Sequence record: NC_027395.1
Reading direction: 5' to 3' (one strand)
Source: Escherichia phage vB_EcoP_SU10
DNA: 64,000 nt
Made by a program: the position numbers and the translations under genes. Each line of letters begins with the position of its first letter. The stretch's first letter is position 1. Shown one piece after another: positions 35,005 to 37,224 of the stretch. A model generated the notes under the pieces. It was not told where the DNA came from, made no database searches, and was given only the letters and a program-made list of their open reading frames with translations.

Positions 35005-35418
35005 TTATATGAATTTCTGCATACCTTTGATACGAGGGTTATCATCACCAACTCTCGATTTACAGTAAGCGATAAAAGATTCAGTATTGAGGTTATCTTT
35101 TTGGGAACCCCACTGAAGGTTGTCTGCTCTATTGTTGCTCGGATTATCATCCAGATGCATAACAACAGCGTTAGGAAAAGGTTTCTCACCGTGAAAAGTC
35201 TCACACACTAAGATATGAATCCTTTTCTTAAACTTTCTTTTCTTGTTTACAAACACCATTCTTCCATCTTTCTCTCTATATCCGCTATATGGTTTTCCTA
35301 CGAAAAGCCTAACTCCACCATTATTCATTATGGCTGTGAAAGGCTTAATCTTAACTCTACCAAAAGATGATACGGAAAGGAAATCATAATAGGGGTGATC
35401 TTTCCAGACTTCTTCCAC
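35005..35418 (-). CDS. free-standing HNH homing endonuclease (HNH_3 type), GTG start (137 aa)
   Basis: HILVCETFHGEKP...VMHLDDNPSNNRADNLQWGSQKDN. The N-terminal W..HP.Y..Y.VS..G.V resembles a NUMOD4-like module. Confidence 0.75.
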   Translation of the reverse strand: MEEVWKDHPYYDFLSVSSFGRVKIKPFTAIMNNGGVRLFVGKPYSGYREKDGRMVFVNKKRKFKKRIHILVCETFHGEKPFPNAVVMHLDDNPSNNRADNLQWGSQKDNLNTESFIAYCKSRVGDDNPRIKGMQKFI

Positions 35419-35427
35419 TATTTATCC

Positions 35428-36174
35428 TCAAAATGGGCTATCGTTGTCGTCTTCGTAAGTAGAAGCAGGCTCTTTATCAATCGTAGGGATTGAAGGGGTA
35501 GCTTCTTTCTGTTCTGTTTCAGAAGCACGAGTAATTTCACGACCAGCCAGAGGCATGTTCTTAGCGTCATTAGCTTGAGTAAGCAGGTTGCGCTGGAACG
35601 GGAACATCAGTTGATAGGATGCTACGTTCTCATCGGTTTCAGCATATGGTTCGAAGAATACCATAGGACTACGAGCTTCACCAACTGCTGCACGATATTT
35701 GGTTGGGATTGGAGAAATGGTCTTGATGGAGTTTTTAACTTCACCAGCTTTGTTAGTGTAAGAGTTAACCAGAATGTTAACAGGCTGACCTAACAGCACA
35801 TCCTTGAACCAAGACAGATCACCTTTCAGTGCTTGAATACTTGGGTCAATCATCTTGCAAAGATCAAGAATACCAGAGTTCTTAGCTCGTGGGTTTACAT
35901 CATAACTCTTGAACTGGCAAGCCGGACGTGGTTCTAATGCCTTACCATCGGAATCTTTACCAGTAGCATCAACACCAATCAGCTCGAAAGCTAAATCCAT
36001 ACGGAAAGTCGGATTCTTAGGAGTTACTGCTTTGGTCTTCGGGTCAATCCAAGGGTCACGATTGTGAACACCCAAACCTACTACACGAACGATACGTGCT
36101 TCGTACTCACCATCAGGGATTACATCGTAGTTGGATTTACGGGAAGCAGTTGCGATAGTTGGAATCATAGACAT
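35428..36174 (-). CDS. single-stranded DNA-binding protein (248 aa)
   Basis: Acidic C-terminal tail ending YEDDNDSPF, as in SSB and T7 gp2.5 tails. Highly expressed codon style. Preceded by a promoter motif. Confidence 0.55.
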   Translation of the reverse strand: MSMIPTIATASRKSNYDVIPDGEYEARIVRVVGLGVHNRDPWIDPKTKAVTPKNPTFRMDLAFELIGVDATGKDSDGKALEPRPACQFKSYDVNPRAKNSGILDLCKMIDPSIQALKGDLSWFKDVLLGQPVNILVNSYTNKAGEVKNSIKTISPIPTKYRAAVGEARSPMVFFEPYAETDENVASYQLMFPFQRNLLTQANDAKNMPLAGREITRASETEQKEATPSIPTIDKEPASTYEDDNDSPF

Positions 36175-36233
36175 ATTTTAATTTCCTTATTTAATTTGAA
36201 AGATTGTTGCTCTCTTTGAGCGGTTATGTATAG

Positions 36234-36242
36234 TATACATTA
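36234..36242 (-). promoter_or_regulatory. TAATGTATA motif on the minus strand upstream of the SSB gene
   Basis: Plus-strand tatacatta. 59 nt upstream of the ATG at 36174. Embedded in the palindrome ttaTGTATAgTATACAtta. Confidence 0.5.
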
Positions 36243-36305
36243 CGCTTATACCGATAAGAGTACTATATAATATAAGTATCTTTGGTAGTAGATATAACAC
36301 ACTAG

Positions 36306-36314
36306 TAATGTATA
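36306..36314 (+). promoter_or_regulatory. TAATGTATA motif on the plus strand, divergent from the 36234 copy, with no downstream ORF
   Basis: Exact 9-mer. The plus-strand sequence downstream has no ATG-initiated ORF up to the inverted repeat at 36411-36476. Confidence 0.35.
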
Positions 36315-36410
36315 TATTGTATAGCTGATAAAGTTATTGCAGGCTTGTATATTGGGCAATTCACAGAATCCCTTGCAAGTACCGAAGGGCAGGAGACACC
36401 TGCGAGATAA

Positions 36411-36476
36411 AAATAGAGAATTAAGGAATCCTTGATTTAGGTTGTAGGGACTCCTAGGGACTTTGATTCTCTATTT
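36411..36476. repeat. 11-bp inverted repeat AAATAGAGAAT / ATTCTCTATTT with a 44-nt spacer; likely minus-strand terminator or structured RNA
   Basis: Arms at 36411-36421 and 36466-36476. On the minus strand the stem runs into TTTTTATCTC. The spacer contains tagggact twice. Confidence 0.5.
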
Positions 36477-36590
36477 AAAAGAATATTAATTACTTATTAC
36501 CTAAATAATTAACTAACTTACTTAAACCAAATTCAATAAGAATAGATAAAAAGATTATTCCTAAGAAAGCTAAGAAGTAAACAATATAAG

Positions 36591-36755
36591 TTACCATTCA
36601 AGTAAACCTTTAAAGTTAGATTGTTCTACTATCCTCTGATAACGAAGATTAGAATCAGCTTGTTTCTTTAACATCTCATTATATTGATCTCTGATAGAGT
36701 CTTTATGTACTACAGGTTCTTTAAATAACGAGATCTTGTTCTTTTCTTCTTTCAT
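36591..36755 (-). CDS. hypothetical small protein (54 aa)
   Basis: ATG at 36755 with a GGAAGG SD. Overlaps the end of the phosphoesterase gene by 35 nt. Confidence 0.35.
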   Translation of the reverse strand: MKEEKNKISLFKEPVVHKDSIRDQYNEMLKKQADSNLRYQRIVEQSNFKGLLEW

Positions 36756-37224
36756 CAAAGACCTTCCTAATCTCTTGCAGAGAAACAGCTTTATAGTTAA
36801 TTTGCTCCATTGATGTACAGAAATATCTCCAATCATCAATTACATGGTTGTGTGTATGAGCATAAATGTTAAACTTTCCTCTCATCTCATCAGTGTGAAT
36901 AGGGATATGAGTTACCCAAAACTCTTTATATTTATAATCACCAGAGATTCTACGGAAGACTTTCATCATATCAGGGAGAAGTTCTAACCTGTCATGGTTC
37001 CCTAAGACTAGATGCTTCTCTCCTTTTACTTCAGCGATGATATCAAGGGCATACTTTTCAAACACCCAATCACCGGTAAAGAAGATTTTGTCTCGCTTAG
37101 TTACATGATCAAATGCAGCTAGAATTGCTTTGTCATGTTCTTCGATGGTTTTAAATTGCTTACGAAAACTACAGATGTTGCGATGACCTAAGTGACCATC
37201 TCCTGCAAAATAAACTTCAGCCAT
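36721..37224 (-). CDS. calcineurin-like metallophosphoesterase (167 aa)
   Basis: GDGHLGH, GDWV, GNHD and AHTHNH motifs. Confidence 0.8.
   Translation of the reverse strand: MAEVYFAGDGHLGHRNICSFRKQFKTIEEHDKAILAAFDHVTKRDKIFFTGDWVFEKYALDIIAEVKGEKHLVLGNHDRLELLPDMMKVFRRISGDYKYKEFWVTHIPIHTDEMRGKFNIYAHTHNHVIDDWRYFCTSMEQINYKAVSLQEIRKVFDERRKEQDLVI

Follow-up and report, generated by a model that had tools for sequence, protein, structure and literature searches.

We analysed a 64,000-nt stretch of the genome of Escherichia phage vB_EcoP_SU10 (sequence record NC_027395.1), hereafter called the window, which belongs to a Kuravirus, i.e. a phiEco32-like coliphage (Gordonclarkvirinae). The spacer under study lies between the phiEco32 gene 40, encoding a protein annotated as SSB-like, and the small gene 41. 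This spacer is probably a hub of divergent transcription, in which an orphan middle promoter of the gp36 type would direct the synthesis of a conserved, structured non-coding RNA (ncRNA) of about 156 nt from the plus strand. A stand-alone plus-strand RNA of roughly 150 nt had been proposed in a preliminary description made from the sequence, and the comparative evidence fits this proposal, i.e. a conserved promoter of the P68 type, a covarying hairpin at the predicted transcription start site (+1), the lack of a conserved open reading frame (ORF), and a homology that ends at the 3′-hairpin.

Positions are given in window coordinates, to which 398 has to be added to obtain phiEco32 coordinates. 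The late genes occupy the plus strand to a position of about 30.1 kb, and genes of the middle and early classes lie on the minus strand from about 30.4 kb onward. The spacer region was matched by 97 phage records, mostly with 95-99% identity, and conservation was assessed with 38 sequences from isolates, IMG/VR, and metagenomes, 23 of which are distinct. A check of the sequence retrieved all motifs of the preliminary description at their positions. Its characterization of the spacer as the largest non-coding gap of the window holds for ORFs of at least 50 amino acids (aa) on the coding strand, with a size of 416 bp, but the gap shrinks to about 315 bp when gene 41 is counted.

The element TAATGTATA is the single consensus, −10-like element of promoters that are used by the host RNA polymerase (RNAP) together with the phage sigma factor gp36 (PMC12276001, PMC4281155, PMC8948821). 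Five exact copies were found in the 64 kb versus an expectation of 0.49, and none of 100 shuffled sequences reached five copies. The four copies other than the plus-strand copy in the spacer coincide with mapped gp36 promoters of phiEco32/SU10, i.e. P13, P26, P40, and P58. The two copies in the spacer had been described as divergent promoter motifs, and this was borne out. The minus-strand copy is the already published promoter P40 of the SSB-like gene, one of the six mapped gp36 promoters of phiEco32; the entry “aagcgtaatgtatactatacataaccgctc” between CDS37 and CDS38 in the SU10 Table S2 is the exact string of this site. Of all copies, only the one on the plus strand is directed against the local genes, which are all encoded on the minus strand; unlike what is expected of a gp36 promoter, it does not precede a middle or late gene in the coding direction.

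The similarity of the plus-strand site to the promoter P68 extends to the upstream region. The 14-nt block TTGGTAGTAGATAT is common to both, and the window contains exactly two copies of the 12-mer TGGTAGTAGATA, i.e. at the plus-strand site and at P68 (47215-47226, minus strand). At the plus-strand site TGGTAGTAGATA is located 11 nt upstream of the AATGTATA core of TAATGTATA, and the distance is the same at P68, which carries the variant aAATGTATA of the element. In the open complex of P68, analysed by cryo-electron microscopy, gp36 contacts −12T and −11G of AATGTA and, via its C-terminal domain, −37G and −34A; mutation of these bases abolishes the activity (PMC12276001). Transfer of the P68 numbering assigns −11 to G36310, −37 to G36284, and −34 to A36287, the latter two preceding the −11 G by 26 and 23 nt, which is identical to the spacing at P68. 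By the same transfer, A36321 is predicted to be the +1 nucleotide; a start 6-8 nt downstream is expected of gp36-dependent promoters. The site and the gp36/gp79-dependent promoter P68 (NAR 2025, PMC12276001) have in common TTGGTAGTAGATAT, the 11-nt spacer, AATGTATATA, −37G, −34A, and a small hairpin at the transcript start. Whereas P68 lies in front of gene 68, in the coding direction, the site in the spacer faces against all local genes, is not followed by an ORF, and has an activity that is predicted only. The hairpin of P68 (UACAA-UAAGAAU-UUGUA, 47189-47173, minus strand; P68 region 47173-47227) is likewise located right at the start site, and on this basis the orphan promoter together with its 5′-hairpin may have arisen when P68 was duplicated.

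The −35 and −10 blocks of the plus-strand site are invariant in the 23 distinct sequences, whereas the 10-11 nt between them (36296-36305) vary freely. In ES17-type phages, an insertion of 130-145 bp alters all of the upstream context, yet GGTA at −37 to −34 is kept with the same spacing, and this tetranucleotide is preserved in all relatives compared. The combination of invariant blocks, a variable spacer, and the retention of GGTA in the ES17-type phages is indicative of the footprint of a promoter in use. Judged from its sequence, the site looks like a complete, working gp36-type promoter. The published lists of six gp36 promoters, which are based on searches limited to the coding-direction strand, do not include it, and searches of the phiEco32 literature for antisense, origin, or ncRNA retrieved nothing relevant. 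Provisionally, it apparently represents a seventh, unreported promoter of the gp36 type. The insertion of the ES17-type phages, which is located between P40 and the orphan promoter and contains an annotated ORF of 47 aa, was found in ES17 (L016, 665-947), EcK-vB, myPSH1131, and SDYTW1-F1-2-2_3. The start codon of this ORF overlaps with the −35 block, and GGTA is still kept.

The predicted transcript begins with a short hairpin, which is the only part of the element that varies much, and it varies by compensation. The window sequence has the 5′-arm AUAGCU and the 3′-arm AGUUAU, with one G·U pair. The respective arms are AUAGCU and AGCUAU in SU7-type phages, AUAGUU and AACUAU in ECBP2, AGAGUU and AACUCU in SR02 and MN05, and AUAGAU and UCUAU in KBNP1711. 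Compensatory changes were found at two of the six pairs (UA to GC at one pair, and both CG to AU and CG to UA at the other), and GC and GU alternate at a third. For the 16 sequences with a type A cassette (see below), the covariation score was 0.043, compared with 0.019 in shuffles, none of 500 of which reached the observed value, and with at most 0.009 when the partners were slid. The calculated folding energy of the window sequence is −3.4 kcal/mol for the plus strand and 0 for the minus strand.

The 5′-hairpin is followed by a variable hairpin domain, a purine-rich linker, and a long hairpin (Table 1). In 12 of the 97 phage records, the type A cassette of the variable domain is replaced by an unrelated 63-nt cassette with two hairpins (type B), which occurs at this locus only and contains one compensatory pair (UA to CG, MN05 versus ECBP2). 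The adjacent invariant core spans 36380-36476. Its identity, measured over 36388-36467, is 92-100% to relatives whose SSB-like coding sequences are about 70-95% identical; about 95 nt are near-invariant, and the conservation exceeds that of the neighbouring coding sequence. The sole recurrent polymorphism of the core is A/C at 36396, in the loop of a local GCAGG/CCUGC hairpin, and one metagenome contig (L034) has a change from A to T at 36405, in the tail of the linker.

The CCUGC of the linker has two pairing options, i.e. the local GCAGG at 36389-36393 or the distal UUGCAGG. RNAalifold chose the distal helix in type A, as had been proposed in the preliminary description for TTGCAGG and CCTGCGA, but this helix shows no variation, contains an interrupting bulge in type B, where the local hairpin was chosen, and competes with the local hairpin. 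A further proposed helix, between CCCTT and AAGGG, received no support: it was predicted neither by minimum free energy folding nor by RNAalifold, and its 5′-arm is missing in the type B relatives.

The 11-bp inverted repeat at the base of the long hairpin was confirmed, and on the plus strand two G·U pairs lengthen the stem from 11 to 16 bp. The folding energies are −23.5 kcal/mol for the plus strand and −18.2 kcal/mol for the minus strand, with z-scores of about −3.2 for both (−3.3 for the minus-strand hairpin). The stems are invariant in the 23 sequences; the only single-sided change detected in them, A36423 to G in XT18, keeps a G·U pair on the plus strand only. The homology to relatives with different upstream genes stops just after 36476-36480, and the conserved module therefore extends from P40 to 36476-36480, i.e. 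just past the long hairpin. In a clade comprising Paul, TH34, Bas88, NC-B, ECBP2, and XT18, both TAGGGACT repeats within the long hairpin lose a G together (AGGACT / TAGGACT), often accompanied by an extra A at 36427, which looks like a concerted change.

On the minus strand, the hairpin is followed by the invariant U-rich tail UUUUUAU (36410-36404), and it is located exactly between two transcription units, with mosaic breakpoints at its edge. These features could be explained by an element of the gene strand only, i.e. a terminator or an RNase III-type processing or stabilising site, formed by the hairpin and UUUUUAU, between the gene 57-41 and P40 transcripts, in which case the plus-strand TAATGTATA copy would be silent or incidental. 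A conserved long hairpin is also present upstream of the gene in an unrelated lineage with an SSB-like protein of 66-69% identity. However, such an element leaves unexplained why the P68-type promoter is kept in full, including −37/−34 across different upstream contexts, and it does not account for the hairpin at 36321-36337, which covaries and for which the minus strand gave no fold. In addition, a near-invariance over about 95 nt goes far beyond the needs of a terminator, and the minus-strand structure is a compound of 66 nt with an AU-rich stem base and a 44-nt interior, in which a consensus terminator scan flagged no terminator. We therefore regard a function restricted to the gene strand as quite unlikely.

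The palindromes of the element (ATAGCT..AGCTAT, GCAGG..CCTGC, AAGGAATCCTT, and the 11-bp inverted repeat) and the TAGGGACT repeats could alternatively form an array of operators, i.e. binding sites of a regulator of P40 and/or of the divergent promoter. Several palindromes and the TAGGGACT direct repeat, phased by 10 bp (one helical turn), are indeed combined in an invariant block, the joint loss of G in one clade is compatible with this explanation, and symmetric changes of a palindrome can mimic covariation. However, the commonest clade breaks the 5′-palindrome asymmetrically, with a G·U pair on the plus strand that is a mismatch in terms of DNA symmetry, and the exchange of the hairpin cassette is more typical of RNA domains. 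Furthermore, the block is separated from P40 by 80-240 bp and lies past the plus-strand start, and no candidate regulator was identified. An operator array thus appears very improbable.

The element is present in all 97 phage records with a phiEco32-type SSB-like protein of at least 80% identity. No conserved ORF was found downstream of the promoter on the plus strand. A coding function was rejected, because stop codons are present in all six frames and indels of 1, 2, and 26 nt among the relatives break any frame. The whole window yielded no matches at the Rfam gathering threshold, and a search of 36150-36650 in E-value mode yielded matches at chance level only (CRISPR-DR47, E=2.7; DUF2815, E=6.1). 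An identity as tRNA or tmRNA was rejected, because no such genes were found. No match to the element was detected with blastn in 5,426 E. coli genomes or in the PLSDB plasmids, and the GTDB genomes contain no exact match to the core. The region upstream of the SSB-like gene lacks the element in the Grimontviridae relatives Proteus P59, Aeromonas LAh_8, Cronobacter GAP52, and Salmonella 7-11, and also in an intermediate lineage represented by three IMG/VR contigs (L031, L032, and L033), the SSB-like proteins of which are 66-69% identical. The spacers of these three contigs contain a different hairpin, i.e. the inverted repeat AAGCATCTAGC...GCTATATGCTT around AAGCTA repeats, about 70-140 nt upstream of the SSB-like gene. 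Just upstream of it on the gene strand is TAATGGATA, which differs from the gp36 element by one mismatch and would place the hairpin in the 5′-untranslated region (5′-UTR).

Pattern scans of IMG/VR and of metagenomes retrieved only five and six loci, respectively, one of which was a chance match. In one metagenome contig (L036, SDBV01056948.1, 3828-3936) the pattern TAATGTATATA...AAGGGCAGGAG was matched and the rest of the element could not be aligned; the match may represent a further promoter context of the gp36 type, from a phage not yet characterised, or may be due to chance. With a covariance model of the RNA, neither the window nor the loci of the distant relatives yielded a second copy, and no complementarity of at least 12 nt that could represent an antisense target was found elsewhere in the window. 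A sponge of the CsrA type was also considered, but the four GGA motifs in 85 nt, a mild enrichment only, were unconvincing, as 3% of windows reach that count.

The following model is proposed for the orphan promoter and its RNA. The known promoter P40 serves the SSB-like gene on the gene strand, and the candidate promoter paralogous to P68 is arranged back-to-back with it, facing against all neighbouring genes. In the middle phase, the host RNAP with gp36, helped by gp79, would start at about A36321 and synthesize a non-coding product of about 156 nt. This RNA would open with the 5′-terminal stem-loop, which may protect it against 5′-end-dependent decay, would then run through the exchangeable hairpin domain and the nearly invariant purine-rich core, and would end in the long hairpin (36411-36476). 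On the other strand, the same hairpin together with UUUUUAU would probably stop or process the gene 57-41 transcripts before P40 restarts transcription, and the long hairpin would thereby be a shared, bidirectional boundary.

A 5′-terminal stem-loop is known to protect E. coli mRNAs such as ompA from 5′-end-dependent decay. Like such stabilisers and the RNase III sites of T7, the putative RNA has a hairpin at the first transcribed base and a long imperfect hairpin between cistrons; unlike in these cases, the sequence of the long hairpin is invariant, which neither role needs, and the function is putative. The RNA also resembles lambda OOP, P22 sar, and phi29 pRNA, i.e. short hairpin-rich non-coding transcripts with their own intergenic promoter and an orientation against the neighbouring genes. 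It differs from them in that no sequence or Rfam relationship exists and the plus strand lacks a canonical terminator; moreover, OOP and sar overlap with their target genes, whereas the conserved part of the element overlaps with no gene.

As the single-stranded core is invariant and no complementary target was found, our guess is that the RNA is stable, acts in trans, and has a protein as its binding partner. It is conceivable, though doubtful, that it is a new subfamily-wide phage effector made on the command of gp36, i.e. either a primer or licensing RNA of a Kuravirus origin or a stable decoy that titrates a host or phage protein. In the latter case, titration may occur through the invariant purine-rich core and the repeated (A)GGGACU/GGA motifs.

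An origin of replication had been named as an alternative in the preliminary description. At a transcript-primed origin, the transcript of the orphan promoter would serve as R-loop or primer for the leading strand, and replication proteins would be loaded at the invariant core and the hairpin; this explanation is compatible with the transcript and differs only in the transcript's purpose. Precedents exist in other phages, as the primary origin of T7 consists of the promoters phi1.1A/B and an AT-rich region, T7 also has phiOL/phiOR, and oriF/oriG of T4 combine a middle promoter with an unwinding element. The spacer shares with them a phage-specific (predicted) promoter in non-coding DNA with no gene downstream, a location in or near replication genes, and AT-rich DNA nearby. 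It is located inside the replication-gene block, beside the SSB-like gene, 3 kb from the DNA polymerase gene, and near the middle of the 77.5-kb genome. A local GC minimum is found just downstream (29% at 36400-36799; 19% at 36477-36590), and the invariance of both hairpin strands would fit a site that acts at the DNA level.

In the T7 and T4 origins, however, the unwinding element is placed right behind the promoter and the transcript needs no conserved fold, whereas here a structured segment is conserved and the AT-rich DNA is not. The latter begins 156 nt past the predicted start, consists mostly of gene 41, and has given way to unrelated sequence in many relatives, including Paul, LAMP, ECBP2, and Bas86-type phages, while the structured part is kept. 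No DnaA boxes, no iteron array, and only two 8-nt repeats were found, and the cumulative GC skew has no inflection here; none of these is decisive for a phage, and the skew tracks the direction of transcription. Pairing that is specific for G·U and the placement of the hairpin precisely at +1 are features of the RNA level, for which an origin made of DNA has no need. No confirmation was obtained for the “SSB” label of gp40: gp40 matched no Pfam family and no PDB sequence and belongs to a PHROG of unknown function, a single-sequence AlphaFold model was unusable (predicted local distance difference test score of 37), and the only indications of an SSB are a single GenBank annotation and the acidic tail at the C-terminus, ...EDDNDSPF, ending in Phe. 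Taken together, we consider an origin as the purpose of the transcript to be unlikely.

Several points weigh against an orphan promoter with a structured ncRNA. The covariance check suggested in the preliminary description revealed three compensatory pairs, of which the 5′-hairpin contains two and the type B cassette one, but more than 40 other pairs never vary, and most helices are therefore without covariation support. The symmetric changes in the palindrome could also reflect a dimeric DNA-binding protein, and both arms of the long stem are more invariant than pairing requires, which may indicate a constraint at the DNA level or on both strands. The plus-strand hairpin has no U-tract (UAUUU and then AAAAG follow) and has an AU-rich base, i.e. 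it lacks the GC-rich stem and the U-tract of an intrinsic terminator that would define a 3′-end, and the terminator scan flagged none on this strand. For this reason the 3′-end at about 36476 is a guess, and the RNA could instead continue as a long antisense transcript. The site may already have been seen, or tested and found silent, in the primary transcription work. Finally, the searches made revealed no target, partner, or homologue.

phiEco32 is a model for phage-encoded sigma factors and for the gp79-mediated reprogramming of the host polymerase, and Kuraviruses such as ES17 are under development for therapy. Based on the sequence comparisons, the candidate would comprise a seventh gp36-type promoter and a new candidate family of phage ncRNAs. 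If true, a gene-less seventh gp36 promoter, conserved in each of the relatives, would give a further, non-coding output to a transcription programme that is regarded as fully mapped, the core of the new RNA family would be better conserved than the neighbouring proteins, and a concrete candidate for the replication origin of Kuraviruses would be available.

Table 1. Features of the spacer between genes 40 and 41 and of its surroundings (window coordinates)
Feature	Position	Strand	Remarks
Gene 40, 248-aa “SSB-like” protein	35428-36174	minus	phiEco32 gene match
Small hairpin GCUC-AAAGA-GAGC, 5′-UTR of the SSB-like mRNA	36209-36221	minus	downstream of P40, followed by A-rich leader
P40, gp36 middle promoter	36227-36242	minus	TAATGTATA at 36242-36234, then TATACA; palindrome around the start site
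TAATGTATA	36234-36242	minus	exact match
TGTATA copies	36227(+), 36234(-), 36309(+), 36318(+), 36346(+)		exact match
Upstream (−35 region) block TTGGTAGTAGATAT	36282-36295	plus	identical to P68 block; G36284 = −37, A36287 = −34
TAATGTATA	36306-36314	plus	exact match
−10-like element TAATGTATA(TA), candidate gp36 promoter “P_as”	36306-36316	plus	exact consensus; antisense orientation
5′-terminal stem-loop AUAGCU-GAUAA-AGUUAU, 6 bp	36321-36337	plus	starts at predicted +1 A36321
TTGCAGG / CCTGCGA	36337-36343 / 36399-36405	plus	exact match
Variable hairpin domain, cassette type A	36342-36379	plus	alignments
CCCTT / AAGGG	36370-36374 / 36385-36389	plus	exact match
Purine-rich linker ACCGAAGGGCAGGAG(A/C)CACCUGCGAGAUAAAAA	36380-36410	plus	invariant except for the changes given in the text
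Long compound hairpin, 66 nt	36411-36476	both	11-bp perfect inverted repeat 36411-36421 / 36466-36476
Direct repeats TAGGGACT	36445-36452 and 36455-36462	plus	inside the long hairpin
AT-rich stretch, 19% GC, mostly gene 41	36477-36590		composition; outside the conserved module
Gene 41, 35 aa	36490-36597	minus	annotated in phiEco32; matches PHROG 24970

The minus-strand TAATGTATA copy had been placed inside a palindrome. The core of the latter, TGTATA-g-TATACA, is present, but the outer “tta/tta” flanks are complementary only in part. Similarly, the TGTATA cluster exists but is mostly a by-product of the two promoters. The hexamer is not enriched in the whole window (23 copies found versus 34 expected), and five of the 23 copies fall inside 125 bp of the spacer, of which the promoters account for two and the P40 palindrome for one; at 36318 and 36346, TGTATA is not preserved among the relatives.

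The small hairpin in the leader of the SSB-like mRNA is part of the context of the hub and lies outside of the plus-strand RNA. Its block is invariant in 16 relatives, and a change in KBNP1711 makes the stem longer. Immediately downstream of the SSB-like gene, a gene for an HNH endonuclease is encoded (35005-35418, minus strand; PHROG 959, E-value 4e-29). phiEco32 has no gene at this position, and most relatives match the window only from 35432 onward. Judged from these alignments, the HNH gene looks like a mobile insertion that is present in a few phages, e.g. Ptacy1532.

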